From: a virus
IMG/VR virus record: IMGVR_UViG_3300031454_000003
Location: 1 to 61,736 of that record
DNA: 61,736 nt
Direction: 5' to 3' (one strand)
Both the position numbers and the translations under genes were made by a program. Below, one piece after another: positions 1-61,736 of this stretch. Position 1 is the stretch's first letter. Each line of letters begins with the position of its first letter. The notes below the pieces were generated by a model, which saw only the letters and a list, made by a program, of their open reading frames with translations, did no database searches and was not told the DNA's origin.

Positions 1-44
1 CTATGAGGTTGACGCTTCTCAGCTCATCACAGTAATCTTCGTGG
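1..44. repeat. 44-bp terminal direct repeat, identical to 61693..61736 (circular closure or assembly overlap)
   Basis: ctatgaggttgacgcttctcagctcatcacagtaatcttcgtgg is present at both window ends. Confidence 0.95.
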
Positions 45-3800: not shown

Positions 3801-6800
3801 GTGTTGATGATGTTAAAGCTAAGCTCATCGAGCGCACCGGTCGCAAGGTCATTTTCGGCAAGTTGACGCATGTTGTCTATAGACTGGTCGATGGCACTGT
3901 CAAGTGCGTCCATCGAGCCCGTCATAGCGTCGGTAAACTGCTGCATCTCGCGCTTTGATTCGCTTACGAAGTCGATAAAGGCGTTTAACAGACCTCCCAG
4001 CGCCGCGATAGCCGCCCCGATATAGTCGCCGCTGGCAGCCTTTAGTGCGACCTGCGCGATGTCATCGATTGCTTTGACGCCCGCGTAGGCGGCGGGGCTA
4101 AGGTCGTCTCGGAAGCCTTCAGCTAGAGCGTCGATACCCGCGCCGAGAACAGCGATGCCTTCAGACGGCGTGACGACGCCATCTGAGAGCGCCTTAGACA
4201 TTCCCTTACTTGCATCCGAGAGGGCTTGCAGACCCCCTCTTGCCTGATCGGAAAGTCCAGGTATGTCGGCAAGCGCCCGGTCTGCCGCTGCACCGATCTC
4301 GTCAAAAGTAGAGGCAACATCACGCGCCAAAGCTAAAGCACGAAGGTCTTCTTGGGTCTGCCGCGCTTGCTCGCTGAGTCTGCCTGTCCCCTCTGCCGCC
4401 GTGTCGAGCGAGCTAATGAGGTCGGCTATGTCCTCGGTGGCGATACCTGAAGCGTCACCTAGTGCTTGCTGGGCGTCGCGGGTAGTTTTGAGGTTTTCGG
4501 CGTAGCGTTCGGCAGCTTCTTTTGCACGTTCTACCGCTTCAGCCTGCGCCTGAGTCTTGTCCTCAGACTCTTGCAGCGCCGTGACCCAGCCCTGTAGCCC
4601 GACCGTCGCCGGGTCGATACCTGCACGGTAGAGAGTCTCGAGTGCGCCTTGATATATCCCGGTCTTGTCGGCGTTGAACTTCGCCGCGTCGCCTGTGATA
4701 GTGAAGGCGTTCTCTGCCTCCTGTAGGGCGTTGCGTACCGTCCCCATCACATCGGCAAGAGTGTTGGTCTGTGAGATGGTCAGGGTAGAGCTAGAGGTGT
4801 ACCCGTCCTGTGTTTCTTTCAGGACACGCCACGAGTCGGAAGCCTCAGCCGCCGCTCTAGCTGCCTCGGCTTGTGCCGCTGCTAGCGTGTTGGTTTGGTC
4901 TGTAGCGATAGCCAGGCCGAGTTGCTCGAGCACGGTGGTCTGCTGATGAAAGACGGTAAGCCCATCCGCAATGGTTTTATTTAGGCCGCGCTGTGCGGCT
5001 TCTTGAGCAAACGCGGCGTCGGTGTTTGCTCTTATCGCAGCTTCGGAGGCGTCTTGGGCGTCAGCGTAAAGGTTGACGTTCTGCGCTGCGGTGCTCCATC
5101 CGAGCTGTTCGATGAGCACGCGCTGCTGGGCGAATATGGTGCTGACCGCTTGGATACTCTTATTCGCTTCGCGCTGCGCGTTGTCGTACTCGGTAACACC
5201 GTCTCTGAAGTTTGCGGCTGCGGTTGTTGCTTCCGTAAGTCGAGCCTGAACCGCCGCGATGTCTTCGTCAAACTTCTGTAAGTCTGCGGCGTCATAATCG
5301 CCAGAGGCCAGCGTATCGGCTTTTTGCTGCTTGAGTTCGGCAAGTTTGGCAGTCAGGGCATTTATCGCGGTCGTAGAGCTTATCTCCCCGCGCTGGAACG
5401 AGCTGACGATATTGTTCGCCATGTCCGCAGCGGTGCGGCCTATCTCTTCAATGTTCGCCGCAAGCCTATCGCCCGCTTCGATCTGTGAATCTATCGCCCG
5501 GATAGCTTGCAGGGCTTCAGCCTGCGCCGCCGACCCGATAGGTGAGTTTTCGTAAATCTCTACCAGCCGCTGACGCTCTTCGCGCAACGCAAGTAGTGAA
5601 CCCTCTTGCGCTTGGTTTGCTTCGCCCGCTTCGCCTTGGGTCTTGATGTATTGCTCTACGCCCGCGATAAGGACGTTGACCTCTTGGGCAACGTGCGGAT
5701 AGGCGGTGCGAAGGGCCTTAAGTTGGTTTAGAAATTGCTGGGCCTGTTCGGTGCTGAGGTTTTGCAGGCCGTTGTATTTTTCTTGCGCCCCGGTAAGACC
5801 GCCGAGTTTGTTCGCCGCCTCAACAGTTGCCTGACCGCCTCGGTTAAGCACTTCTATTTGGGCTTCGCCCTGAGAAATGAGGGGGCGCAAGGCCGCCTCG
5901 AGCTGCGGATAGACCTGCAACGCTGCGTTCAGACGGTCAACGTAAGCTTGCACCTCAGCTTTGTTTGTGCTGTACGCCTTACCCATATTGTCTATAGCGC
6001 GCTGCTGTTCTTGTTCGGCGGTTCCTAGTTTAGCTGCCGAGTCCGCCGCTTCATTTTGTGAGGTTGCAAGGCCGTCTATGCTGTCTGCTGCTGCGTCCGT
6101 AGCGGGCGGTAGACCGAAAACACCGCGTACGAAATTATCTACAGACACTAGGTTCTTTTGGTTCTCCGCTTGAAACGCCTGCATACCCTTAGTGTCAAGA
6201 GCGTCGTCTATAGCCGTGCTGATGGTGGCGTAGGTATCTTTAATGCTCTGACCTACACCGACGATTGCGCCACCGATACCGGCGATACCAGCGCCGAACT
6301 GTGCGAAGGATATACCGATCTGGCGCGCCAGTGTTTCGCTACGCCCCATAATCGGCTCGAGGCCAGCCAGACCCCGCGAAAAGTCAAGGACGTTGTTCAG
6401 TAGTCCCTGAAAAACCGGCAAGACTGCCAGCGCCATTTTGTCGCCTAAGAAACCGAACGCGCTACCGATGAGCGTAACCGTGCTGTTGAGGCTTTTTAAC
6501 TTAGCGTCAACCTCAGTTTGAAGGGCGTTTAAGTCTTCAGCTTCAGCTCGAGCCAACTTAAGTGATAAACCAAAGTCTTCATACCCGCCGACTAAGGCGT
6601 CGAGAACTCGGATGTTTTCAGAACCGCTAAAGCCCAAGTCGGCGTAAATGCCGACAAGGGACTCGCCGGAATCACTTGCTTCTTTAATGCCGCCAGTGAG
6701 CTGATAAAACGCTTCGACCGGGTTTTCCTTAAACAGCTTGGCAAACTCTTCCGAAGTCAAACCCGTGATCGCTGCAAACTTATCTAACGCCGCGCCGCCT

Positions 6801-9800
6801 TCGTCTACAGCCTTAACGATGATGTTAAAGATGCGTACGGTGCTTTCGCCGCCAGCTTCGGCGCTGAACCCTAGACTCGCGAGCGCGCCCGCCATACCTA
6901 AAATCTCAGTCTGAGACGCGCCCGCCGAGGTTGAGAGTCCGGTGAGGCGTGAGGCAAGCGCCAAGATAGGTGCTTCAGTAGTACGCAGGTTGTTGCCGAG
7001 TTCGGTGATAACGTTACCGACCAGATTAGCCGAGTCGGTGATAGACACGTTTGCGTCTTTTGTCAATCCGACGAACGTAGCAAGTTGCTGAGCACCCTCT
7101 TCTCCGACAATATCTGTGGCGATGCCCAGCTTGTTCATGATGTCAACAAAACCCGCGATGTTGTCAGCGCCTTTAATGCCGAGCTGACCCGCAACCGCCG
7201 CGTACTCCTGAAGGGCTAAGACGCCTGTGCCCGTTTCAGTCGAAATGCCTTGTAACTTCGTTTGCAACAAACCGAGTTGGTCTTGAGTCAGGCCGGTAGT
7301 CTTACCGATAGCAACCAGGCCGTCATTTAGGTCGCCAGCCCGGTCGAAAAGTGCTTTGGTCGCTACCGCCGCGCCGATGATCGCGCCGACCACACCGACC
7401 GTCAGGGCGATGTTCAACGCCTTAGCCGACAGCGAAGCTCCGGTCATTCCAGCCGACGCGCTGAACATGGCAACGCCCATCGCTTCACCCGCAGGCCCGA
7501 GGCGGTAAAGGACGTTCTGAAGCTGGTCCGAAACCCCCGCCGTGACACCTGACGCGACCCCAAAGGTGCGTACCCGGCCCTCGGCTTGCGCTAACGACGA
7601 TTCAACCCGAGTGAGACCGGTGGTGTAATTTGCGTAGGCGCGGGTGCTGTTATCCAGACCCGAGCGGCTCTGCTCGAGCGCCACGCCGATGCCGCGCGCC
7701 GAAACACTGAACTGTTCTTGCGAGATGTCGCCACGCTCTAAAGCCAGCTTGAGCTCGTTTAGTGCCGCAACTTGCTGCCGGACGTTCTCAGCCTGAAAAG
7801 CGTCACCGGCCCGCTGCTGGGCTGTGGCTAGACGCGTTGCCGCACTCTCGGTCTGCCCCATCACAGAGGCGAGCGTGCGCTGCTCGTTGGCACTTAGCGT
7901 CGTGCTATTAGCGAACTCGCGTAAACGCCCCTGAAGCGCCTCAATAGCGCGGGCGGTCTGGTCAAACGAGGTGACGCCGTTTTTGTTGGCGGTGACGATC
8001 TGCTCTAGGTCGCTGCGGAACGTCTTGAGCGCGTCAACCCGGAACGCTGCCTCGAGCTTGCTCTGCTCGGCGACAAGGCGGGTCGTTGCGCCCTCAAGCT
8101 CGCGCTCTACATTCTGTAGTGCCGTCAGCTCACGGACCGACAGGTTCGCCGCTTGTCCCGAGTCACGCAGTGAGGTGTCGAGTTTATTCAGTTCGCCTTC
8201 AATGCCTGAGAAAGCGGTACCCAGCTCACGCCCGGTGCTCTGCAAGTCCTTGAGTTCGGTGCTGTAAACCCGCACCGGCCCCGCGTCGAAGGCTCTGCTT
8301 GTGCGCTCGGCTGTGGTGCCGACCTCTAGCAGCGCCCGCTCGGATACGTCTAGCAACTTATTGAAGTCAGCAAACTCGCGGCTGTTCTGGTTCAGGGTGC
8401 TGCCGTACTCGCGCAGTCTGCTCTGCGAATCCGACACGGCGCGGGTAAAACCCTCTGCGCCGATCCCGCCTTTGTCGTAAGCCTGCACCGCGTTTTGCAA
8501 CTCACCGACGAATGAACGCAGTGCCGAAGCGTCAAACGCTCGAGCTGCTCGCTCCTGCGCCCCGGCGAAGGTGTCGGCGCTCCGGCCCGCGTCGATCTGT
8601 AAACGTGAGAAGGTATCCAGCTCACGCTCAGCTATCCCCAGCGCGGCGGCGTAGTCCTTGAACTCGGTTTGTATCTGCTGCACAGCACGAGCCGCTTGCT
8701 CGGTGCTGGTGAGGTTGCTCTTTTGCGCTTTTTCAACGTCACGGAGGCGCGCTGTGAACTGCTCGATTTCAGCACCGCGATAAGCCTGCGCCGCGCGCTC
8801 CTGTTCCCGTGTCAACGACTGTGTAGCGCGCTCGGTGGCGTCCATGACCCGGACGAGTTCCTTGTGCTCACTCGAGCCCTCTGAGAGCCCACGAGCATAG
8901 TCCTGTAACTTACCCCTCAAACCCTCGAGACCGCGCCCTAACCCGTCAAACGACCCACTCAGGCGCTCCTGCTCACCCCGGTACTGTGAAACTGCGCCTG
9001 AGTCGTACTTTAAGGCGCGCTGCTGTGAGTCGAGCCGACCGAGTTCGGCGGTCGTATTGCGGAGGGTACCCTCGAGCTGTTTTAGTTCGGTGCCGTAGGT
9101 GCGGATCTGGGCAGCGTCGTTTGCGCGAGAAGCCTTCTCCGCTGCCGTCTGATACCGCTCCTGCTGCGCTGCCGCCTCTTTAAGTAGACGACTGAACTGA
9201 TCGAACTCACGCCCGGTATTCGTGAGCGCGGCCTGTTGTTCTTTTAGTTCGGCGCTGAGTTTTTGTACACGTGTTGAGGCGTTCTCAAAACCGTCGGTGC
9301 CGGACTTTACCGCGGCGTCAATCTGCTTAAACTCGCCCGCGTAACGGCTGAGTTCATCACTGCGAAAACTAGCCGTGAGTTTGTCGGCGTCCGCCTCGAG
9401 TTTTTTGATCGCCGTCCCGGTGTCGCCCATCGCCTTAATGACAGACTTATACTCGGCGCTGTTTTTCTCGAGCGCGCCGGTCTGCTGTGCTAAGGCACTC
9501 TGATAGCTTTTGAGCTGAGAGATGGCCTGCGTTTGTGATGTGACGCCCGCTTTTTGCGCCTGCACGATGTCGAGTAGTCCCCGACCGTAGCGGGTCAGGT
9601 CTTCAGTCTTGTACGACGCGGTGAGGGACTTGTTGAGTGACTCTAGCTTTTTGCCCTCGTCGCCTGCCGCTTTCATATCTTTAGCGATGCCTAAGTATCC
9701 GGCCCCGGCTTTGTCCAGTACCGCAACCTGACCTTTTAGGATGGCCTCAAGCTCCCGGTAGCGTTGCAAGCTGCTCTGTATCTCTGCCGCGCCAGCCTTG

Positions 9801-10045
9801 ACCGCGTTCGCCAGGTTTTGCATCTCGCGCAGGGTCAGCTGCGCTTGTTTGGCGAGCGGGTCTAGGCGAGCGTTCGCTTCTTTGGCAGCGGTAGCGAGAC
9901 CCTGAAGGGCGCGCTCGAGAGTATCGGTAGATTCCTTTTTAAAGGTTTTCTCTACGGCCTGCTCGACCTCTTTTAGTGCTGTGAGGACTTTGCTGTTATC
10001 GAGTACGATTCCTACGGTTAAGGAAGCTAGCGGAATTTCTGCCAT
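893..10045 (-). CDS. tail tape measure protein, 3050 aa
   Basis: Giant ORF between the tail-tube genes and tail-tip genes. N-terminal third is made of coiled-coil repeats, with central Gly/Ala-rich hydrophobic stretches. SD GGAGGGG lies upstream. Confidence 0.9.
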   Translation of the reverse strand: MAEIPLASLTVGIVLDNSKVLTALKEVEQAVEKTFKKESTDTLERALQGLATAAKEANARLDPLAKQAQLTLREMQNLANAVKAGAAEIQSSLQRYRELEAILKGQVAVLDKAGAGYLGIAKDMKAAGDEGKKLESLNKSLTASYKTEDLTRYGRGLLDIVQAQKAGVTSQTQAISQLKSYQSALAQQTGALEKNSAEYKSVIKAMGDTGTAIKKLEADADKLTASFRSDELSRYAGEFKQIDAAVKSGTDGFENASTRVQKLSAELKEQQAALTNTGREFDQFSRLLKEAAAQQERYQTAAEKASRANDAAQIRTYGTELKQLEGTLRNTTAELGRLDSQQRALKYDSGAVSQYRGEQERLSGSFDGLGRGLEGLRGKLQDYARGLSEGSSEHKELVRVMDATERATQSLTREQERAAQAYRGAEIEQFTARLRDVEKAQKSNLTSTEQAARAVQQIQTEFKDYAAALGIAERELDTFSRLQIDAGRSADTFAGAQERAARAFDASALRSFVGELQNAVQAYDKGGIGAEGFTRAVSDSQSRLREYGSTLNQNSREFADFNKLLDVSERALLEVGTTAERTSRAFDAGPVRVYSTELKDLQSTGRELGTAFSGIEGELNKLDTSLRDSGQAANLSVRELTALQNVERELEGATTRLVAEQSKLEAAFRVDALKTFRSDLEQIVTANKNGVTSFDQTARAIEALQGRLREFANSTTLSANEQRTLASVMGQTESAATRLATAQQRAGDAFQAENVRQQVAALNELKLALERGDISQEQFSVSARGIGVALEQSRSGLDNSTRAYANYTTGLTRVESSLAQAEGRVRTFGVASGVTAGVSDQLQNVLYRLGPAGEAMGVAMFSASAGMTGASLSAKALNIALTVGVVGAIIGAAVATKALFDRAGDLNDGLVAIGKTTGLTQDQLGLLQTKLQGISTETGTGVLALQEYAAVAGQLGIKGADNIAGFVDIMNKLGIATDIVGEEGAQQLATFVGLTKDANVSITDSANLVGNVITELGNNLRTTEAPILALASRLTGLSTSAGASQTEILGMAGALASLGFSAEAGGESTVRIFNIIVKAVDEGGAALDKFAAITGLTSEEFAKLFKENPVEAFYQLTGGIKEASDSGESLVGIYADLGFSGSENIRVLDALVGGYEDFGLSLKLARAEAEDLNALQTEVDAKLKSLNSTVTLIGSAFGFLGDKMALAVLPVFQGLLNNVLDFSRGLAGLEPIMGRSETLARQIGISFAQFGAGIAGIGGAIVGVGQSIKDTYATISTAIDDALDTKGMQAFQAENQKNLVSVDNFVRGVFGLPPATDAAADSIDGLATSQNEAADSAAKLGTAEQEQQRAIDNMGKAYSTNKAEVQAYVDRLNAALQVYPQLEAALRPLISQGEAQIEVLNRGGQATVEAANKLGGLTGAQEKYNGLQNLSTEQAQQFLNQLKALRTAYPHVAQEVNVLIAGVEQYIKTQGEAGEANQAQEGSLLALREERQRLVEIYENSPIGSAAQAEALQAIRAIDSQIEAGDRLAANIEEIGRTAADMANNIVSSFQRGEISSTTAINALTAKLAELKQQKADTLASGDYDAADLQKFDEDIAAVQARLTEATTAAANFRDGVTEYDNAQREANKSIQAVSTIFAQQRVLIEQLGWSTAAQNVNLYADAQDASEAAIRANTDAAFAQEAAQRGLNKTIADGLTVFHQQTTVLEQLGLAIATDQTNTLAAAQAEAARAAAEASDSWRVLKETQDGYTSSSTLTISQTNTLADVMGTVRNALQEAENAFTITGDAAKFNADKTGIYQGALETLYRAGIDPATVGLQGWVTALQESEDKTQAQAEAVERAKEAAERYAENLKTTRDAQQALGDASGIATEDIADLISSLDTAAEGTGRLSEQARQTQEDLRALALARDVASTFDEIGAAADRALADIPGLSDQARGGLQALSDASKGMSKALSDGVVTPSEGIAVLGAGIDALAEGFRDDLSPAAYAGVKAIDDIAQVALKAASGDYIGAAIAALGGLLNAFIDFVSESKREMQQFTDAMTGSMDALDSAIDQSIDNMRQLAENDLATGALDELSFNIINTQLDLIENQRQVNDDLADVALRRREALQGITDPDDIALINDGFDAEETAIREGGELNADAIVQGGIDTALAAGQSTEDFIAELESGNSGVAGSVANGSVIIGDAIDGYAEDIGNDWDNAGSEMRESMEAALQDQIDSFNDATDEWENSLLDSRIRLAKAQGASDIEILILETNAKILDAHQSFMDDMADLETDKEDIIRAYILANPGISREEAEAYAESIVAPGRDALEENYANTSAAILLESQTQAEELGLSEREYWKAVIEGNQEVLGDMTEEQRLALLDFIATAREYGIELPGYLEDMYNEVYGAHTEGGARVSEGAEQGNAEHMAALSNIESQLRAILGPAADEIIALINETYEGQQAAHTEGGAEAGQAAETGNQSQLAALDNIYAQLRALLGPAADEIIGLIQATYDGQSGAYEEGSRETAAGIDAGAETEAQALTDRENTLQGLLERSDLTPALRESAKRLQDEFISGANMTAAEIAAGREKVALELSTRNSRIEELVRGGMSIADATRQVDGEIAATFDSMTGDVTNSVNTSGTAIGSSITDTVSKITGVLNGDYAGMGNTVGVASRIFTAAISASGNDESQAFTTQGSAVSGTVGNISGNITSAIGSLYGDVTGGLSKGSSEMVSQIQRAYEAEQSKFSAESAVFERLIASAKGDEKATLQREYDALKREHEADSRDYQNQIDSSAKSEQSAISGAEKLLSGALGAWQKSISSDTDSGYRGIGSTFDNGSREFRSIIDKASGVEKSALSSAVSTVTGALGKMRDDVIGKTNSTFSDQGDAYKTGMDKYIGIINDQETALQRALGRIADVIKNFKYPKLPTPPTPSSSGYAGEAPVISPVDFMPSIGAFAADGFLPDYSYATSGALAYAAATTGLLDLFGPSRTLALSSKQERALSLNITFSGLKDSFAAPVAGMERASSLMMNAARLQFDAAERFAAAVEKMATNAAGSTLEWSRRPRRR
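2552..2881 (-). repeat. tandem 165-nt (55-aa) duplication inside the tape measure
   Basis: AHTEGGARVSEGAEQGN..LRAILGPAADEIIALINETYEGQ is followed by AHTEGGAEAGQAAETGN..LRALLGPAADEIIGLIQATYDGQ. Confidence 0.8.
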
Positions 10046-38899: not shown

Positions 38900-38913
38900 T
38901 CTAGTAATGTCAA
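38887..38913 (-). promoter_or_regulatory. divergent early promoter candidate: TTGACA-15-TATAAG (or -17-TAAGCT), interlocked with the repressor promoter
   Basis: The perfect TTGACA is the complement of 38908..38913, inside the first repressor codons. Confidence 0.4.
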
Positions 38914-39782
38914 TTGCCCACATTACTACCATGATATCTTCACCCTTAATGAAGGTTTGGGCAACAGCTAATGTCAAAACCGCCAAGACTCTTGGTGAAT
39001 TGCTTACGGCGAAACGGTCTGATTATGAAGGTACGCCTGAACAGTTCGACCAGTATGTTGTGGCAGACGCTATTGGCTTTAGCCAGCCTTACGTGAGCCA
39101 AATAGAGAAAGGACATGCCGAAAACCGAGTTCGCAAGTGGCCTTCCAAAAAACAACAGGCTCTACTCGAGGCTTATAAATTCACGACCGAAGAGATTGCA
39201 GAGATCGGCGAGAAGTTTAACCTTGACCTCCCCGGCGTGACCGCCACCGCAACCTTCAGACAACCCGCCGGGCGTTTTCAGGCCACGGCGGAGATCGGCG
39301 CACCCCCGGAGAACACCACCACCCTCGAGGCCACCCGGCGTTTCGAGGTACAAGATACTCACATCACCTTTCGGGTCTACGCGGGTATTTCTGCCGGTCA
39401 TGAAGAAGCGGAGCCTATAGAGGGTGAGGCGTTTAGTATCCCAAGTGCTGACCTGTCAGGCATTGACCCGGTGTGCGTGCGCGTCTACCGCGTCAACGGC
39501 GATTGCATGGTGAGTGAGTCTGCGCGCGGCCTCACTATGAACATCTGTAGCGGTGACAAGATCGCGGTAGATATATCCCAGCGGATCGTCAACAACAACG
39601 ACGTGATAGCGGCCTACTGGCGACCGGGTGACAAGCTCGTGGTCAAACGCTACGTGGAGGCGGGCGACCATATCGTGCTTAAACCGACCTCACCGACCCA
39701 CCCGCCGTTGATAGCCCAGAACAACGATGATTTTGAGATTATCGGCAAAGTAGTATGGCGTGGCGGCCCTTTCCGCGCTTAG
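38907..39782 (+). CDS. LexA/CI-type repressor (XRE HTH plus S24 peptidase)
   Basis: HTH VADAIGFSQPYVSQIEKG. LexA-like cleavage region FRVYAGISAG. Catalytic region VNGDCM ... VVKR. Confidence 0.85.
   Translation: MSIAHITTMISSPLMKVWATANVKTAKTLGELLTAKRSDYEGTPEQFDQYVVADAIGFSQPYVSQIEKGHAENRVRKWPSKKQQALLEAYKFTTEEIAEIGEKFNLDLPGVTATATFRQPAGRFQATAEIGAPPENTTTLEATRRFEVQDTHITFRVYAGISAGHEEAEPIEGEAFSIPSADLSGIDPVCVRVYRVNGDCMVSESARGLTMNICSGDKIAVDISQRIVNNNDVIAAYWRPGDKLVVKRYVEAGDHIVLKPTSPTHPPLIAQNNDDFEIIGKVVWRGGPFRA
39240..39356 (+). repeat. repressor-linker copy of the ATFRQPA(P/G)R..AE(V/I)G repeat shared with the tail fibre
   Basis: TATATFRQPAGRFQATAEIG, then the degenerate TTTLEATRRFEVQ. About 80 percent nt identity to the fibre repeat on the opposite strand. 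Confidence 0.7.
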
Positions 39783-41455: not shown

Positions 41456-42787
41456 ATGTCTCAACTTGCTACCAAAGCAACCCCCGCCGCCTTCTTGGGC
41501 CGAGTCTCCACACAAAATCAAGCAAAACTCGACAAGCAAGGGTTGCCTGAACAGCGCCGCGCTGCCCAAGCTTACGCTGAAGCGAATGATTTTGAGATTG
41601 TCGCAACATTTGAAGATGTGATTTCCGGGGCGTCGGAAGCGCGCCCCGCTTTTTACGAGATGCTGTCACGGTCTTACGAGTTCAAGGCCGTGATCGTTTC
41701 GCATACCGACCGGCTGGCTCGTGACCTCGAGCTGGGCCTGAGACATATGCGCCTCATCCGTGAGGCGGGTCTCGAGCTGCACAGCGCCGCGCGGGGGCTT
41801 GTAGAAAAGGGCATCGTCTCCGGCGTCGATATGCTCTTAGGTGAACACGAGAAAGAGCGGATCAAAGAGCGGACGCAAAACGGTTTGATAGCAGAGGCTC
41901 GGGACGGTAAATTGCCGAACGGTCTCCACCTTTTTGGCTACCACAACGTACCGGGACAAAACCGAGGTGTGATCAACCCGGACGCAGCCGCTGTCGTACG
42001 GCGCGTCTTCGACCTTGGGGCGCAGGGTCTCAGCTACCGCGCCATTGCACGTGTGATGATGGCGACGCGCGCCCTTACACCGCTCGGTAAAGAGAGCTGG
42101 TATCAGCACACCGTCCGGCGCATGATCTGTAACACCGCCTATAAGGGTGAGTTCGTTTGGACACACAAACGCGGCGGTCGCTTTGTGCTGCCTGTGCCAG
42201 CTATCGTGTCAGCCGAAGAGTGGGCAAAAGCGCAGCGCCACAAGCGCGGCCCGCCTGTACAGGTGCCGCTCCCCTTATCAGGTCGGCTCCGGTGCGGTCG
42301 GTGCGGTGCGGCGATGGGCGTGCGGAAAGTTGACCGGGGCGGCAAGCACGTCTACCTCTACTACCGCTGTGGCAGCGCAGGAACCCCGAGCGGCGCGTGC
42401 GGCGTGGGGCTCGTCAGGCGCGACAAGCTCGAGCCTAAAGCCGAAATCCTCTTACGCGACACGTTGCAACATCCTGACCTGTTACGGGACCTCACGCGCC
42501 CTGACACAGAGCGAGACCAGCACGAGCAGCGCCGCCTTGACGACTTAGGCGAAAGAGCGGAGCGGGTGAAAGAGATGCGTTTAGATGGACTCTACAGCCG
42601 CGAAGAAGCGCGGATAAAAGTAGCGGAAATCGACGCCGAACGACGTGCGCTAACGCAGCAAGACGACACCGAATTTCCCCTCGAGGAGTTTGCCCTGGCA
42701 GCCCGTGAAATGCCTTTTGCCGAGCTTTTAGAGCTTACACAACCGACGTTTTACGTGCAGGGCGACGTTCTTACGCTGGAGTTTTGA
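41456..42787 (+). CDS. int: large serine recombinase (integrase)
   Basis: N-terminal resolvase domain FLGRVSTQNQ, recombinase domain, and Cys-rich zinc ribbon CGRCGAAM...YYRCG. Confidence 0.9.
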   Translation: MSQLATKATPAAFLGRVSTQNQAKLDKQGLPEQRRAAQAYAEANDFEIVATFEDVISGASEARPAFYEMLSRSYEFKAVIVSHTDRLARDLELGLRHMRLIREAGLELHSAARGLVEKGIVSGVDMLLGEHEKERIKERTQNGLIAEARDGKLPNGLHLFGYHNVPGQNRGVINPDAAAVVRRVFDLGAQGLSYRAIARVMMATRALTPLGKESWYQHTVRRMICNTAYKGEFVWTHKRGGRFVLPVPAIVSAEEWAKAQRHKRGPPVQVPLPLSGRLRCGRCGAAMGVRKVDRGGKHVYLYYRCGSAGTPSGACGVGLVRRDKLEPKAEILLRDTLQHPDLLRDLTRPDTERDQHEQRRLDDLGERAERVKEMRLDGLYSREEARIKVAEIDAERRALTQQDDTEFPLEEFALAAREMPFAELLELTQPTFYVQGDVLTLEF

Positions 42788-42807: not shown

Positions 42808-42850
42808 TGTTACAATAGATGTGCCTCACGAGGTTCGAGCCTCTAGGCAC
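42808..42850 (+). promoter_or_regulatory. private HNH promoter (TGtTACAAT) plus nested leader hairpin
   Basis: GTGCCT CAC GAGG ttcgag CCTC T AGGCAC, followed by GGAAGGAG and ATG. Confidence 0.55.
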
Positions 42851-42875
42851 TCTGCGCTCTGGAAGGAGCAACAGC

Positions 42876-43535
42876 ATGTCAAATATAGCACCGGAACTAA
42901 AAGTATGTTTGAAATGTGGAGTGGCATATCCACTTGATGACTACCGTATTGAGATGAGACGAGGTAAGCCATATCGTCGGCCCGATTGTAGGACTTGTAG
43001 GGCAGAGACGTCTAAACAGTATTATGAGGCGAATAAAGAAAAGATCATGCAGACTGGCAGGGTTTGGGCAAAACAGAATAGAGAGCACGTCGCCGCTAAA
43101 ATACGACAACGACGACGTGCAAAAACACAAGAGAAAAAAGCCGCTCGAGCAGTCGTACCACATCCTGATAATATTGTTTTAATATCGGCCTTAAGGCGCT
43201 CCTTAAAACAGTGGAGTCCTGAAAAAGACCGAGCGGCTGCTCATAACACTAGAGCCAAGAATTTAGGTATTAAAGGCCGAATTACCTTTTTCGATATACA
43301 AGCCAAGCTTTTAGAGCAGGATTTTTTCTGCTACCTGTGTGGCGCTATGTTAGAAGACAACTACCATGTAGACCATGTTCTGGCGTTGGCGAGGGGCGGC
43401 GCGAACGATCCGGGTAACATTGCTATAGCATGTTCGCTTTGTAACTGGTCAAAAAATGACCGTGACCTTAAAGAGTATAAGGATTTTGAGAAACAGACCC
43501 TTAAGAAACCCACTCCGAAAACGGCGTTTCATTAG
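42876..43535 (+). CDS. HNH endonuclease, family A
   Basis: YHVDHVLALARGGANDPGNIAIACSLCNWSKNDR. N-terminal CLKCG...CRTC. Confidence 0.85.
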   Translation: MSNIAPELKVCLKCGVAYPLDDYRIEMRRGKPYRRPDCRTCRAETSKQYYEANKEKIMQTGRVWAKQNREHVAAKIRQRRRAKTQEKKAARAVVPHPDNIVLISALRRSLKQWSPEKDRAAAHNTRAKNLGIKGRITFFDIQAKLLEQDFFCYLCGAMLEDNYHVDHVLALARGGANDPGNIAIACSLCNWSKNDRDLKEYKDFEKQTLKKPTPKTAFH

Positions 43536-43640
43536 CACCCGCAAGCATTACCCGTGGCGACACCGTCACCTGGCAAGGCACGCCTTACACTGTCGCCGCC
43601 GTCCGCAGCGTGCCGGACAGTGTACACGGGGAGCTGTTCT

Positions 43641-43913
43641 TCATTTCGCTCGAGGCTCCGGGTCGGCGTGTTGAGGTGACTTGTTCGGAGCGGTATCGGT
43701 TTGCCGTGCCTTAATTCGTGCCACAGCTTCTAGGCCCATCTTTTGCAGATATTCATGGCGTCGTTTCGTAATTGGTCCCATATTGGTACCTAAGCGTCCA
43801 ACGCTATCGGGTACGGCCTCCCCCGTCAGCTCTTGGTATTTTTCTTGGAATGTGGAGAAGGGCAACTGCCCAGAACGGAACAGGCTCCATAATTTTTCTT
43901 CGTTGTGCGTCAT
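43641..43913 (-). CDS. hypothetical protein
   Basis: ATG at 43913 behind GGAGGT. Confidence 0.5.
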   Translation of the reverse strand: MTHNEEKLWSLFRSGQLPFSTFQEKYQELTGEAVPDSVGRLGTNMGPITKRRHEYLQKMGLEAVARIKARQTDTAPNKSPQHADPEPRAK

Positions 43914-43944
43914 TATTTGACCTCCGGCGCGGTATCGATTCCAG

Positions 43945-44160
43945 CTATGAGTTTTTATCCCGATATTGAAACTTAGTAGCAAGTATCCGACAAGCAATCT
44001 CTCTGTTTTTTACGTTGCTCTTGGCACTACCTGACTCGCCGTAAAGCCCAGTAGGTATATGCGTCACTCTTATAACAGGCCACACCATACCCTCGTTAGA
44101 ATCTGCGAATGGCCTACCGCCGCCGATCATATCTACCCTGATGTTTTTGGGCTCAAACAT
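43945..44160 (-). CDS. release-factor GGQ-domain-like mini-protein with GGR in place of GGQ
   Basis: NIRVDMIGGGRPF...VIRVTHIPTGLYGESGSAKSNVKNREIACRIL lines up with class-I RF DIRID..SGAGGQHVN..VRITHIPTG..RSQHKNK. SD GAAGGGGA. Confidence 0.55.
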   Translation of the reverse strand: MFEPKNIRVDMIGGGRPFADSNEGMVWPVIRVTHIPTGLYGESGSAKSNVKNREIACRILATKFQYRDKNS

Positions 44161-44193
44161 TATTTCCCCTTCGGTGCGGTATCGCTTTGCCGT

Positions 44194-44397
44194 TTAATGC
44201 TTTCCAATCAGTCTGTAGATTGGGGCTAGGATTTTGCGAAGCCCATACCTAAGCTCAATCATCCGCCCGTATAGCGAATCTCTCAGGGTTCGCCGGTAAG
44301 CCTCGTCGTGCTCATCTTCGATCACTTCAACACCCGAGTAATGGTAGAGGGCGTTGTACTCCTCTTGTCGTGCCGTCTCGTACCACGGCTTAATCAT
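44194..44397 (-). CDS. hypothetical small protein
   Basis: 67-aa ORF with SD GGAGGGG. Confidence 0.5.
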   Translation of the reverse strand: MIKPWYETARQEEYNALYHYSGVEVIEDEHDEAYRRTLRDSLYGRMIELRYGLRKILAPIYRLIGKH

Positions 44398-44581
44398 TTC
44401 CCCTCCTCGCTTCCCGCCGCGACATTTGCGCCCGTATCAGCGCCAAAAGACGACGCGGACTAATCGCCGACACAGAGCTGTCTACAAAGGGCGTCCCTTC
44501 GGCTGAAAACTTGACCGGGGCTTTGTAGCTGTCAAGGATGTCGGCGTCTAGGCGTTTTATGGCCTCAACCTTGTGTTGCAT
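44390..44581 (-). CDS. hypothetical small protein
   Basis: MQHKVEAIKRLDADIL... Start is uncertain. Confidence 0.45.
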   Translation of the reverse strand: MQHKVEAIKRLDADILDSYKAPVKFSAEGTPFVDSSVSAISPRRLLALIRAQMSRREARRGND

Positions 44582-44792
44582 TGTTGCCTCTCGGTGTCGT
44601 CTCATAACGTCGATCTACTAGCTCGCTCAACTCGTTAAGCCATTCTTTTACTGACGGCTCATTTTTGTAATTGTACGGAAAATGCCCAGCATTAGCATAT
44701 CGGCTGATGGCGTCAGCGAGAGTGCACATTCTTAGCTCATCATGACGAAAGCGCGGCATAACACCGAAGGGCGGTTTTAGATCGTCGGTCAC
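44565..44792 (-). CDS. hypothetical small protein
   Basis: 75-aa ORF in the chain. Confidence 0.5.
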   Translation of the reverse strand: MTDDLKPPFGVMPRFRHDELRMCTLADAISRYANAGHFPYNYKNEPSVKEWLNELSELVDRRYETTPRGNNATQG

Positions 44793-45211
44793 TTGTTTAC
44801 CTCTGGCGATACAAACCCCTTCAAGCTAAACGCATCCGGCTCGAGGCATTGCTTCAGGCAGTCGAGTACCGCGTACTCGAATATCTCAGACTCGCCTATA
44901 CGACCGATCCCGAGCATTGAAGTGCTGACTCGGTAGATTTCCATCCCCTCGTCATCATCGGTATCTATTCGGATAGTCGCGTCGGTAATCTCCGAAAGTC
45001 CGGTGTGAAGGATTTGCAGCGCCCAGCCGGTCACGATAGCGAAGTCTGAATATCCTTCACCATCTTCTTTGTCGCCATCTATGCCGGTGTCGATCTGCAA
45101 CGGCTGCGACCCATCCGGAAAGCGCAGGGTAAAGTTTCGCCCGTCGTATTCGCACAAGTCAGGGCGCGTCTTGGCAATGGCCTCGAGGGTGTCGATGATT
45201 TCAATGTCCAT
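44789..45211 (-). CDS. hypothetical acidic protein
   Basis: 140-aa ORF in the chain. Confidence 0.55.
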   Translation of the reverse strand: MDIEIIDTLEAIAKTRPDLCEYDGRNFTLRFPDGSQPLQIDTGIDGDKEDGEGYSDFAIVTGWALQILHTGLSEITDATIRIDTDDDEGMEIYRVSTSMLGIGRIGESEIFEYAVLDCLKQCLEPDAFSLKGFVSPEVNK

Positions 45212-45441
45212 TATTTGTCTCCCTCCGGCGGCCCGTCGGTCTTCGGCTCTACGGTTAGCGTCAGCCCCAGCGCCTCGAGGATCGCCGTGGCAGCTTCAGC
45301 GGCTTTGTTCCTATCGCCGCTGAGAAAACGGGACACGGTGGCCTGCTTTACACCGGCCTCTTTTGCCAGTCGCTCTTGTGTCCAACCCTTATTGCCCAAG
45401 GCTTTTTGCGCCGCTTTTCTTATCTCATCATTCATTCTCAT
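45211..45441 (-). CDS. Cro/XRE-type HTH regulator, leaderless start
   Basis: GWTQERLAKEAGVKQATVSRFLSG. The -10 box TATGCT ends 6 nt before the ATG at 45441. Confidence 0.7.
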   Translation of the reverse strand: MRMNDEIRKAAQKALGNKGWTQERLAKEAGVKQATVSRFLSGDRNKAAEAATAILEALGLTLTVEPKTDGPPEGDK

Positions 45442-45447
45442 GACTAT

Positions 45448-45493
45448 AGCATACCACTTAGGTATTGACATGTCTATACCTATATGTCATAAT
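45448..45493. promoter_or_regulatory. divergent promoters with abutting -35 boxes inside a 24-bp near-palindrome (45459..45482)
   Basis: Plus strand: TTGACA(45465)-17-CATAAT. Minus strand: TAGACA(45476..45471)-17-TATGCT. Palindrome TAGGTATTGACATGTCTATACCTA is 22/24 symmetric. Confidence 0.6.
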
Positions 45494-46653: not shown

Positions 46654-47250
46654 TTAGCGGCTTCTCGTAGGTAGCCGCCCGCACGCTACCCCATCGCCGT
46701 CCGCGTCAAGCCGGTGAACATCTCCCGGTCGCGCACCTCCGAAGAACGCTTGCGCCTCACCTTGCGTCTTAAACGAATTGCAGTTGCGGTCAACGAAACG
46801 CCCCGGCAGGTTATGCCACATCCCTTTTTTGACACTACGCGCGCCCGCCTCTGCTGCCTCGTAGAGCGCCCGGTAGCGCGCATCGTCTATAATCTGCACG
46901 CGCGCTAGCCCTGCTTGCAAGAGCTGTAGCCCCACGTCTCGCCCGTCTACAAATGCGTAAGCCAGGAGCCGCCCGAAGCGGTCACGCTCTACAAGTCCGG
47001 GCTCGAGCATGACCTGCTTGCCCGCCACGAGGCTCCGTACAAAGGCCGTCGCCTCGAGTCCGAACGGCTCAATACGTCGCCACGTCTCGGGCGAATCTAC
47101 GCCGATGAATCGCAGGTACTCAAGTTTGCCGTCTATCTCGAGTCTAAGTGTATCGCCATCTGTGACGCGGTAGATGTCAAAAGGCCCGCGCATCTGGGCG
47201 AGGGCAAACGTCAGCATGAGCGTGAGGGTAAGTGAGATAGTTTTAAGCAC
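46654..47250 (-). CDS. secreted staphylococcal-type thermonuclease with a C-terminal Excalibur domain
   Basis: Signal peptide LKTISLTLTLMLTFALA. SNase core VTDGDTLRLE..RFIGVDSPE..RDRFGRLLAYAF. Excalibur domain CNSFKTQGEAQAFF..HRLDADGDGVAC. Confidence 0.85.
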   Translation of the reverse strand: MLKTISLTLTLMLTFALAQMRGPFDIYRVTDGDTLRLEIDGKLEYLRFIGVDSPETWRRIEPFGLEATAFVRSLVAGKQVMLEPGLVERDRFGRLLAYAFVDGRDVGLQLLQAGLARVQIIDDARYRALYEAAEAGARSVKKGMWHNLPGRFVDRNCNSFKTQGEAQAFFGGARPGDVHRLDADGDGVACGRLPTRSR

Positions 47251-47251
47251 G

Positions 47252-47770
47252 TCAGTTTCCTTTCTGTTCTTTCGATACACAGGTCGTCGGGATTGTAAAC
47301 GGCAACGCCACGACAGCAGGCGAAGCACCCTCTGCGACAATGCCCATCCGAACCTCGTATCGCCCCGGAAGAATAGGGGCGCCAAACCTGTCTGTATGGG
47401 GAACGTAGAAACGACCAGGGTTGTGGATGGTCTCTCCGCTTAGGTAGATAGTATCCAGCTCCTGATCACGGCCCTGAGCAATGGCGGTCCGGCTGTGGTC
47501 ACGGTCCCAAAGTGTCGTGACGACATGCCCGACAAAAGGCAGGCGTAACGGGTCTATGGTCACGGCAAAATCAATCCACTCGCCAGGGCAATAAGGCAGG
47601 TCTTCAAGGTCCTGCGCTAACTCGATCGAAATAGCGGGCGTCGGCTCCGTGCGGATGATGGCTTTATGCAAAAAGCTCCAGGCCCCGCCCGCTATGATAA
47701 ATAGGCTGCCCACGCCGATAATAGCGAGGAGGAGTATAGCTAGCAGCATCCGCTCCAGTGAAAACTTCAT
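47252..47770 (-). CDS. N-terminally membrane-anchored protein
   Basis: TM segment MLLAILLLAIIGVGSLFIIAGGAW. ATGA-coupled. Confidence 0.55.
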   Translation of the reverse strand: MKFSLERMLLAILLLAIIGVGSLFIIAGGAWSFLHKAIIRTEPTPAISIELAQDLEDLPYCPGEWIDFAVTIDPLRLPFVGHVVTTLWDRDHSRTAIAQGRDQELDTIYLSGETIHNPGRFYVPHTDRFGAPILPGRYEVRMGIVAEGASPAVVALPFTIPTTCVSKEQKGN

Positions 47771-50542: not shown

Positions 50543-50595
50543 TGTTATAATGGAAAAACCGACAGGTCATAGGGATGTCCGTCCCTCGCTGCCGG
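50543..50595 (+). promoter_or_regulatory. private HNH promoter (TGtTATAAT) plus nested leader hairpin
   Basis: CCGACAG g tcat AGGGA tgtccg TCCCT cg CTGCCGG, followed by GGAGGT and ATG. Confidence 0.5.
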
Positions 50596-50622
50596 TCACT
50601 AGGCACATCGGAGGTGCATAGC

Positions 50623-51216
50623 ATGACAATTTTACCCCTTTCTAAAACTTGCGTACATTGTGATAACGAGTTTCCGGCTACCGCTGAGTATTTTCACCGC
50701 GATAAAAAACGTGAGGGTGGACTTTATCCGCGTTGCAAAGTTTGTAAGTACATAGCGACGCGAAACCTAACAACCGCACAACGTTTTGGGCAATCCGTAA
50801 ATAAAACGTCAGATTGTTGGTTATGGACAGATCGGCTTAAAGACAACGGCTATGCAACATTTACATGGAAAGGCGTCGGGCATTATGTGCACCGTTATAG
50901 CTATGGACTACACTATGGAAAATTTGACACAACCTTACAGGTTTTACATACATGCGATGTCCGAAATTGCGTTAATCCTGAACATCTCTTCCTTGGCACA
51001 ATTGCGGACAATATGGCTGACAAAGTGGCTAAAGGTAGACAGCGGCGGGGTGTAGCACATCTAATGGCAAAGCTTACGGAAGAGGATGTAACGAAGATTC
51101 GGCATGCCTACGCCGAGAAACGTTACAGCCAGAGCCAACTAGGTAAGCAATTCGGTGTTACCCAAACTTGTATCGGGGCGATTGTGAGACGGAAAACTTG
51201 GTCTCATATTATGTGA
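50623..51216 (+). CDS. HNH endonuclease, family B
   Basis: CWLWTDRLKDNGYATF..HRYSYGLHYG..HTCDVRNCVNPEHLFLGTIADN and a C-terminal HTH. Confidence 0.8.
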   Translation: MTILPLSKTCVHCDNEFPATAEYFHRDKKREGGLYPRCKVCKYIATRNLTTAQRFGQSVNKTSDCWLWTDRLKDNGYATFTWKGVGHYVHRYSYGLHYGKFDTTLQVLHTCDVRNCVNPEHLFLGTIADNMADKVAKGRQRRGVAHLMAKLTEEDVTKIRHAYAEKRYSQSQLGKQFGVTQTCIGAIVRRKTWSHIM

Positions 51217-60796: not shown

Positions 60797-61405
60797 TTAA
60801 AAAAGCCTCCCTGCAAAATCAAGGGGGCTTCTAGCGTGCTTACTCAAATTGCATGTAGGGCAACTGCACACTAGATTCTCTGGGCCGTTAGAACCGCCTT
60901 TTGAAAGTGCTACAACATGGTCAACGTGGTACTTACCCTTGCCGGACTTCTTGAGCTTGGCTCCACACCACCAGCACATGCCTTTTTGGGCATCAAACTG
61001 CCTAGCCACATCCTCGGCGGTATGTGTGCCTTGAGCGCCGCGCTTAAGTGCCTGCCTTTTTCTTTGATAAGCTGCATCTTTGTCAAGGTTTGCTTTTCTC
61101 CAAGCTGTTTTTCTTCCTGGGTTTTCTTCACACCACCTTGCAGTACGCGCCCTTGCTTCTGCGGCATGGGTGGCGCTATACTCCCTATTTTTTTCTATAA
61201 ACCTTGTGCGATTGGCTGCGTAATGTATTTTCGCTTTGTGTCTATTTTCCGCGCGATTGGCTAGGTAGTGTTCTCTCTGATACTCCTTAACGCAAACTCT
61301 ACAGTGTGATGATAAACCACTTTTAGACCGAGAGTATTTAAGAAATTCCGATGGGGGTTTCTTTTCCTTGCACTTATTACAACATTTCAGCGATAAACTA
61401 TCCAT
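60797..61405 (-). CDS. HNH endonuclease, family A
   Basis: QKGMCWWCGAKLKKSGKGKYHVDHVVALSKGGSNGPENLVCSCPTCNLSKHARSPLDFAGRLF. Confidence 0.85.
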   Translation of the reverse strand: MDSLSLKCCNKCKEKKPPSEFLKYSRSKSGLSSHCRVCVKEYQREHYLANRAENRHKAKIHYAANRTRFIEKNREYSATHAAEARARTARWCEENPGRKTAWRKANLDKDAAYQRKRQALKRGAQGTHTAEDVARQFDAQKGMCWWCGAKLKKSGKGKYHVDHVVALSKGGSNGPENLVCSCPTCNLSKHARSPLDFAGRLF

Positions 61406-61692: not shown

Positions 61693-61736
61693 CTATGAGG
61701 TTGACGCTTCTCAGCTCATCACAGTAATCTTCGTGG
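61693..61736. repeat. second copy of the 44-bp terminal repeat
   Basis: Identical to 1..44. Confidence 0.95.

Follow-up and report, generated by a model that had tools for sequence, protein, structure and literature searches.

The window, the whole stretch of 61,736 nucleotides of viral DNA analysed here (IMG/VR record IMGVR_UViG_3300031454_000003), encodes on its minus strand a 71-residue protein, here called mini-RF (43945..44160), which is almost certainly a true remote homologue of domain 3 of the class-I release factors, consisting of that domain alone and having lost the GGQ motif. The assignment of this coding sequence to a stand-alone, GGQ-less domain-3 homologue is based on the open reading frame, on profile matches in PHROG and the PDB, on Foldseek and on codon comparison. 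As the whole explanation, we propose, with a probability of about 0.4, that mini-RF is a copy of release-factor domain 3 with a replaced loop, which would act by occupying a site on the 50S subunit without catalysis.

In the ORF list the gene has 71 codons and starts with ATG. A Shine-Dalgarno-like GAAGGGGA (44165..44172, minus strand), read directly from the sequence, lies before this ATG with a spacer of 5 nt. The protein is basic, with a computed pI of 9.6 and a net charge of about +3.6. Two close relatives were found, P0001 on a Logan contig (96% identical) and P0002 on a MAG contig (71% identical), and the three sequences together form the family referred to below.

The only Pfam match of mini-RF is a partial one to the RF-1 domain (PF00472; 21.7 bits, E=2.1e-4), which covers profile positions 34-71 of 116 and the second half of mini-RF only, and which stays below the gathering threshold of 35 bits. 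PHROG 20323, 'RF-1 domain peptide chain release factor', matches with E=2.2e-8, residues 1-64 of mini-RF lying on profile positions 1-62. Considering that this match covers nearly the full length of the 73-position profile, that the protein is phage-encoded and that its 71 aa fall within ~60-80 aa, mini-RF is a member of this family. In a phmmer search of the PDB the protein matched mtRF1 (E=9.5e-6) and Thermus thermophilus RF2 (E=1.3e-4), and the three-sequence family profile reached E=1.1e-8 against the same database. Among the NCBIfam models, prfA gave E=1.7e-5, the matches to prfA, prfB and prfH all being weak. An exhaustive scan of 1.84 billion proteins with the three-sequence profile returned, outside the family, RF-1-domain proteins from E=2.6e-8. 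The first-pass annotation had proposed kinship to the release-factor GGQ domain for this ORF, together with a good Shine-Dalgarno sequence, and both claims are borne out. It had also staked its reading on a significant profile match to the RF-1/GGQ domain, which PHROG 20323 provides, though PF00472 remains below its gathering score.

The two motif matches put forward in that annotation are present in the HMMER alignments, where VIRVTHIPTG of mini-RF corresponds to VRITHIPTG and SNVKNREIA to SQxKNKxxA. The first of these, V29-G38 (codons at 44047..44076, minus strand), is the conserved beta2/turn element common to all class-I release factors. The second lies in A46-L60 (AKSNVKNREIACRIL; codons at 43981..44025, minus strand), the start of a helix equivalent to release-factor helix alpha7 (ERSQHKNK..A...L). 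In an alignment of 21 mini and canonical sequences, R31, T33, H34, P36, T37 and G38 are conserved at a level of at least 90%, and S48, N52, A56 and L60 are likewise conserved across the minis and the canonical factors.

The structure of mini-RF was predicted with AF2, from an alignment dominated by canonical release factors. The resulting model (pLDDT 80) consists of a strand at 7-12, a loop at 13-28, strands at 29-34 and 40-43 and a helix at 49-70. The 47 best matches to this model in a Foldseek search of the PDB are all RF1, RF2, mtRF1, PrfH or C12orf65, with TM values up to 0.76, and the RF1-PrmC complex 2B3T is among the matches. Since the main model depends on an alignment containing release factors, a control run was made with the three family sequences only. 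The control model has a pLDDT of 55.6 and the same order of secondary-structure elements, and its top 45 PDB matches are again release factors. The loop is of low confidence in both models. Canonical release-factor fragments dominated the output of a profile search made with the mini alignment, and this output was used solely as the structure-prediction alignment.

Compared to domain 3 of RF1, RF2 and mtRF1, mini-RF has the same fold and the same VRxTHxPTG and SxxxN[KR]..A...L elements (SQxKN[KR] in the class-I signature), and shares with them the lack of an insertion between beta2 and beta3. Unlike these factors, it is without domains 1, 2 and 4, without the codon-recognition superdomain (PCRF PF03462, PxT/SPF motif), and without the GGQ tripeptide and its flanking R..SG.GGQHVN.T.S, and its helix is shortened. 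The earlier description of the protein as this domain alone, lacking the codon-recognition domains and the ArfB tail, agrees with its 71 aa and the absence of PCRF. ArfB (YaeJ), ICT1 and C12orf65 are also small proteins built on the GGQ domain, and they act without codon recognition. However, GGQ is retained in these factors, a helix is inserted between their strands beta2 and beta3, and their ribosome binding requires a basic C-terminal tail (PMC3950681), which binds the mRNA channel in ArfB and ICT1; mini-RF has none of the three. Its C-terminus extends only 7 residues past the aligned helix region, and its THIPTG leads directly into strand 40-43. Because THIPTG runs straight into the next strand, with no inserted helix of the ArfB/ICT1 type, we regard mini-RF as a derivative of the RF1/RF2 type. 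PrfH (RF-H, the partner of RtcB2) likewise contains a GGQ-type domain homologous to release-factor domain 3 (PMC9304027). In contrast to mini-RF, PrfH carries a GGQ and is anchored to damaged ribosomes by a domain for rRNA recognition. The PrfH model TIGR03072 covers only residues 30-69 of mini-RF, with 17 bits against a cutoff of 166 (E=3.2e-3), so that mini-RF is not a PrfH. [quoted passage not shown]

The segment found in place of the GGQ loop is G13-P28 (GGGRPFADSNEGMVWP; codons at 44077..44124, minus strand), as delimited by alignments and family comparison. The first-pass annotation had placed a GGR opposite GGQ, with the catalytic Gln replaced by Arg and an insertion of 3-4 residues after the motif. 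The absence of the Gln is confirmed, but GGQ is paired with G14-G15-R16 in none of the computed alignments. HMMER pairs it with F18-A19-D20 against T. thermophilus RF2 and with P17-F18-A19 against mtRF1, and the canonical-only profile pairs GGQHVN with P-F-A-D-S-N in P0002, N22 being the conserved Asn. MAFFT places GGQ opposite A19-D20-S21 when mini-RF is aligned with other minis, and opposite G15-R16-P17 when it is aligned with many canonical factors. The glycine run G13-G15 (to R16) falls on canonical R-S-S-G / S-G-A, just upstream of GGQ. A mini that retains GGQ, P0064 (...RPPGGQHVGLNWP..., ...RPPGGQHVGLNWPK...), has RP before the motif and WP after it in common with mini-RF (...RPFADSNEGMVWPV...), and these shared residues place GGQ opposite A-D-S. 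The alignment of the mini-RF loop is unstable, as the loop shows no conservation with release factors. In every version, the catalytic position in mini-RF has neither the two glycines nor the glutamine. The apparent change from GGQ to GGR is, judged by these alignments, an artefact; the motif is gone, and a family-specific loop GGGRPFADSNEGM has replaced it. The supposed insertion of 3-4 residues is not seen either. Between the RVD and IRVTH strands, the loop has 19 residues in mini-RF versus 18 in canonical factors, and the canonical-only profile alignment contains one deletion and a two-residue insertion, E23-G24, for a net change of +1.

Residues G13-M25 of the loop are invariant in all three family members, and the loop therefore matters to the mini-RF lineage. 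Its codons 13-28 differ from those of P0002 by four synonymous changes and one non-synonymous change. In the loop-coding segment (44077-44124), 11 of the 16 codons are identical in nucleotides between the window and L001, the contig of P0002, the DNA overall being only 75% identical. This conservation of codons beyond the constraint on the protein may be due to chance or to recent recombination.

The hunt for relatives comprised a word-indexed search of 5.8 billion clusters, an exhaustive HMMER search over 1.84 billion representatives, and searches with family-specific peptide patterns in IMG/VR, GTDB genomes and JGI metagenomes. Beyond P0001 and P0002, these cluster, protein, IMG/VR, GTDB and JGI searches gave no close relative; the extra loci from the GTDB and JGI pattern searches were ordinary RF1/RF2 genes or a spurious frame. 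A megablast search of the mini-RF region against phage genomes gave no match. At the codon level, 19 synonymous and 15 non-synonymous differences separate mini-RF of the window from P0002, and 7 synonymous and 3 non-synonymous ones separate it from P0001. The synonymous excess over the two relatives argues that mini-RF is a real gene under purifying selection. Chance similarity and a non-coding region were considered as readings, and were ruled out by the PHROG and PDB profile matches and the codon comparison.

Each of the three copies of mini-RF lies in a different gene neighbourhood. On L020, the contig of the 96%-identical relative, the order is a different XRE HTH gene, a homologue of the window ORF at 44390-44605, and mini-RF. 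On L001, the gene upstream of mini-RF encodes a Rad52-like protein. A conserved partner gene was not found in the neighbourhoods of the window, L020 and L001. The three different neighbourhoods indicate that mini-RF is a single cassette, mobile among phage regulatory and early-type regions and kept intact.

The first 44 bases of the window (1-44) are repeated exactly at 61693-61736. Because of this exact repeat at both ends, the window is a complete phage genome of ~61.7 kb, circularly closed or terminally redundant, which confirms the earlier statement that the protein is phage-encoded. The phage is a temperate siphovirus-type phage, and its genome (GC ~55%) encodes a large terminase, a major head (capsid) protein, a tape measure, a helicase, a methyltransferase and a ParB-like protein, in addition to a CI-like repressor with an S24 peptidase domain (38907-39782; PHROG 4, E=3e-25) and a large serine integrase (41456-42787). 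The large terminase is 49% identical to those of Thermobifida and Streptomyces phages, and relatives of the capsid protein were found in metagenome contigs only. The long ORFs read normally in code 11. There are no tRNA or tmRNA genes in the window, and no link to stop-codon recoding was found there. The tape-measure gene is a single ORF of 3050 aa (893-10045, minus strand), in which tape-measure families match only approximately residues 170-1300; this is unusually long given a genome of 62 kb, and suggests either a very long tail or additional domains. An HNH endonuclease gene lies at 42819-43535 (plus strand; PHROG 1035, 'endonuclease VII'), and with those at 50575-51216 (plus strand) and 60797-61405 (minus strand) there are three in one 62-kb phage; the genes at 42819 and 60797 match the same PHROG 1035 family. 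A 243-aa protein with a staphylococcal-nuclease domain and an Excalibur calcium-binding domain, a secreted-type nuclease, is encoded in an accessory region at 46654-47385 (minus strand).

Mini-RF is the seventh of eight close-packed minus-strand ORFs that run from 45471 to 43641 as a string in which no terminator-like site was seen. The first of them is an XRE-family HTH gene of 86 aa (45211..45471, minus strand; Pfam HTH_3, E=1.2e-11, and PHROG repressor/regulator families). Four small ORFs, overlapping or abutting, lie between the HTH gene and mini-RF (44789-45211, 44565-44792, 44390-44605 and 44194-44397, all on the minus strand), and none of them has a family match in PHROG, Pfam, PADLOC or NCBIfam. 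The last ORF of the string, of 90 aa from an ATG at 43913 in the ORF list (43641..43913, minus strand), has a basic C-terminal half and no match in the same four collections; it is absent from L020 and L001. A 'split ArfB', in which the basic half of this 90-aa ORF would serve as the tail, was considered and set aside, as the ORF is absent beside both relatives. A 16-nt motif that includes the Shine-Dalgarno sequence, GATACCGCRCCGRAGG, occurs exactly on the minus strand at 44168-44183, before mini-RF, and at 43921-43936, before the next ORF, and a weaker copy with 3 mismatches lies ~240 nt further on, at 43682-43697. With up to 3 mismatches the motif has 9 matches versus 2.3 expected, and it may mark the border of a cassette, or serve both genes as an element of translation initiation or regulation. 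A 34-aa plus-strand ORF (43610-43714) runs over the 3' end of the final ORF in the string. On L020, a convergent ORF of 59 aa lies beside mini-RF, and its C-terminal half is homologous to the 34-aa ORF (75% identical nucleotides over 139 nt; plus-strand region 43564-43714 of the window). The 34-aa ORF has the appearance of a shortened leftover from an adjacent gene.

The first-pass annotation had assigned mini-RF to a Cro-like operon that would be expressed early. The gene does share its strand with the XRE HTH gene, and the small ORFs form a string without interruption, but that the string is Cro-like and early is unproven, the CI-like switch being ~5 kb away. The CI-like repressor, with a divergent long minus-strand operon leading into replication and structural genes, is located at ~38.2-39.8 kb, and the XRE-headed string is not the main immunity switch. 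The string has its own divergent partner, the plus-strand ORFs from 45573. A near-consensus promoter-like site on the plus strand (TTGACA-17-CATAAT, 11/12, the -10 being extended by a TG) is found at 45465-45493, in the region 45443-45493, and shares its position both with the beginning of the XRE gene and with weaker promoter-like sites of the minus strand. The region 45443-45493 has the look of another divergent switch in the genome, distinct from that of the CI-like repressor. At its other end, the string runs convergently against the HNH and integrase genes. From this arrangement, mini-RF could be either an early or a prophage-expressed accessory gene.

Stand-alone GGQ-less RF-1 domains are already an annotated phage family, and by its sequence mini-RF is one rare lineage of this loose, homology-annotated class of the PHROG 20323 type. 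The exhaustive search and a scan of IMG/VR found many short, GGQ-less proteins (59-80 aa) that are built on the scaffold of mini-RF. They keep VRVTHIPTG...S..xN[KR]..A...L, and their loops of 8-21 residues are hypervariable, have no common sequence and are mostly without GG or Q. All 21 of the aligned minis match PHROG 20323. In BFVD, a series of phage proteins of 64-83 aa has the mini-RF fold (Acinetobacter phages Henu6 and 133, Cellulophaga phage phi14:2 and uncultured Caudovirales), and the phages with PHROG 20323-type proteins include Acinetobacter phages Berthold, Konradin, Abraxas, Henu6 and 133. The relative in vB_AbaM_Berthold, YP_009886173 (78 aa; NC_049490.1 75936-76172, L002 2989-3225), is annotated 'RF-1 domain peptide chain release factor / putative peptidyl-tRNA hydrolase'. 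Like mini-RF, the PHROG 20323 proteins of this kind are stand-alone, of ~70-80 aa, with a strand-loop-strand-strand-helix topology and no GGQ. The Berthold protein is ~33% identical to mini-RF, with the loop YRTGGARRWVNRPFNA versus GGGRPFADSNEGM in mini-RF. Its gene is located inside the T4-like tRNA gene cluster of Berthold, which includes a tRNA annotated 'Pyl', whereas mini-RF is found in an XRE-headed string of small ORFs in a temperate siphovirus-type phage with no tRNA genes. GGQ-less RF-1 domains with N- or C-terminal extensions of 120-150 aa were also seen in IMG/VR contigs of 115-343 kb (L009 7923-8555, L014 1426-2049 and L015 7866-8597), and these extensions have no Pfam match and no recognisable second domain. 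The same contig set also holds full-length RF1/RF2 and PrfH-like genes. Our search of the literature on phage GGQ-less or stand-alone release-factor domains found nothing that tests such proteins or remarks on the absence of GGQ. In one group of mycobacterial tRNA arrays, an RF-1-domain gene was described as belonging to the core (PMC5966550). The position of the Berthold relative in a tRNA cluster and the RF-1-domain genes of the mycobacterial arrays point towards translation.

The most likely role of mini-RF is that of a non-hydrolytic ligand of the 50S A site/PTC, or of a decoy for a binder of release-factor domain 3. In the first case, mini-RF would occupy the domain-3 site on the 50S subunit, on the A-site side of the peptidyl-transferase center, without catalysis, and would compete there with RF1/RF2, ArfB or PrfH, or shield the site. 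Termination or ribosome rescue would then be modulated during infection or lysogeny. This binding mode is favored by the residues that the class has kept, which every ribosome-bound release factor shares, and the basic charge of mini-RF (pI 9.6) and the proximity of relatives to tRNA genes are also counted toward it. A precedent is Balon, an aeRF1 homologue without GGQ that is a non-catalytic occupant of the A site/PTC (PMC10901736). The comparison with Balon is one of functional analogy only and no homology is claimed, as Balon is a cellular protein of three domains and 41 kDa, of the unrelated aeRF1/Pelota fold family, that is delivered with EF-Tu. A non-catalytic ligand of the domain-3 site is the single most likely mode for mini-RF, but a tentative assignment, the odds lying against it. 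We know of no ribosome anchor in an isolated GGQ domain. RF1 and RF2 bind the ribosome mainly via domains 2/4. PrfH binds via its rRNA-recognition domain (PMC9304027), and single substitutions in the C-terminal tail of ArfB reduce its ribosome binding (PMC3950681). Because the anchors of RF1/RF2, PrfH and ArfB are all outside the GGQ domain, the affinity of a lone 71-aa domain for the ribosome may be low. The lack of an anchor also weakens the hypothesis of the first-pass annotation that such a domain could stall, rescue or reprogramme ribosomes. The conserved residues may have been kept only to hold the small fold together.

A role away from the ribosome is a rather unlikely alternative, although it survives better than the others. 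In this case mini-RF would be a decoy for a partner that binds release-factor domain 3, such as the GGQ methyltransferase PrmC/HemK, a host toxin or a defence sensor, or else a small RNA-binding protein. A scaffold that is conserved while the loop is free to vary fits a partner that reads the body of the domain, and domain 3 of RF1 is the substrate surface of PrmC, as in the complex 2B3T found among the structural matches. However, the recognition by PrmC is centered on the GGQ loop itself (2B3T), which is the varying part of the minis, and the benefit to a phage from blocking the methylation of release factors is not obvious. Accessory regions next to an integrase often hold prophage-expressed genes, and the mini-RF gene is in such an accessory-looking region. 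Against a role away from the ribosome, PADLOC gave no defence or anti-defence match for mini-RF or its neighbours, and no neighbour is conserved at the three loci. Organellar homologues of release factors exist that have lost GGQ and gained other roles. Other GGQ-less relatives with presumed new functions are also on record, for example an extra ICT1 without GGQ (PMC3472500).

Two glycines and the backbone at the Gln position are needed for ester hydrolysis in the PTC, and as there is no Gly-Gly-Gln at the loop tip of mini-RF, canonical peptidyl-tRNA hydrolysis is very unlikely. A residual activity, with mini-RF as a minimal ArfB-like rescue or release factor that uses G13-G14-G15-R16 or another part of the loop, which corresponds to the 'hydrolysis-altered' domain of the first-pass annotation, is quite improbable as well. 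The loop is near canonical length (19 versus 18), contains the glycine run and is strictly conserved in the family, and relatives are annotated 'putative peptidyl-tRNA hydrolase'. In mutagenesis of release factors, catalysis was found to depend less on the Gln side chain than on the glycine pair and the backbone, which would favor a residual activity. However, the glycine run is 3-5 residues before the GGQ position, at RSSG/SGA, the expected tip is P-F-A-D-S, and the GGQ of P0064 falls opposite A-D-S of mini-RF. In addition, the loops of other class members are too short for the PTC, and mini-RF is without a ribosome anchor. A decaying, functionless remnant of a captured release-factor gene is just as improbable and is disfavored by the selection signal. 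In its favor, fragmentary RF-1-domain ORFs are common in metagenomic data, and only three sequences in 5.8 billion clusters make up the close family. Against it, the ORF is intact with its Shine-Dalgarno sequence in three mosaic contexts, the synonymous excess is 19:15 against the 71%-identical relative and 4:1 in the loop, and similar minis recur in unrelated phages.

Some class members have loops of 8-9 residues, which are too short for the PTC, and a function common to the class cannot depend on the loop tip. In a more speculative reading, which we consider unlikely, the GGQ-less domains would form a phage toolkit of PTC-directed 'loop presenters', in which the scaffold docks in the 50S A-site cleft and places a lineage-specific loop, here GGGRPFADSNEGM, beside the P-site peptidyl-tRNA. 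If so, host release or rescue factors would be blocked, phage translation would be shielded from abortive-infection ribotoxins, or stop-codon readthrough would be promoted. The phage annotations 'RF-1 domain / putative peptidyl-tRNA hydrolase' cover proteins without the catalytic motif, and the annotated activity is probably wrong. If mini-RF and its relatives do bind the ribosome, they would be the smallest known protein ligands of the A site/PTC, would represent a phage strategy of tampering with termination or ribosome rescue, and may be of use as compact probes of the PTC.
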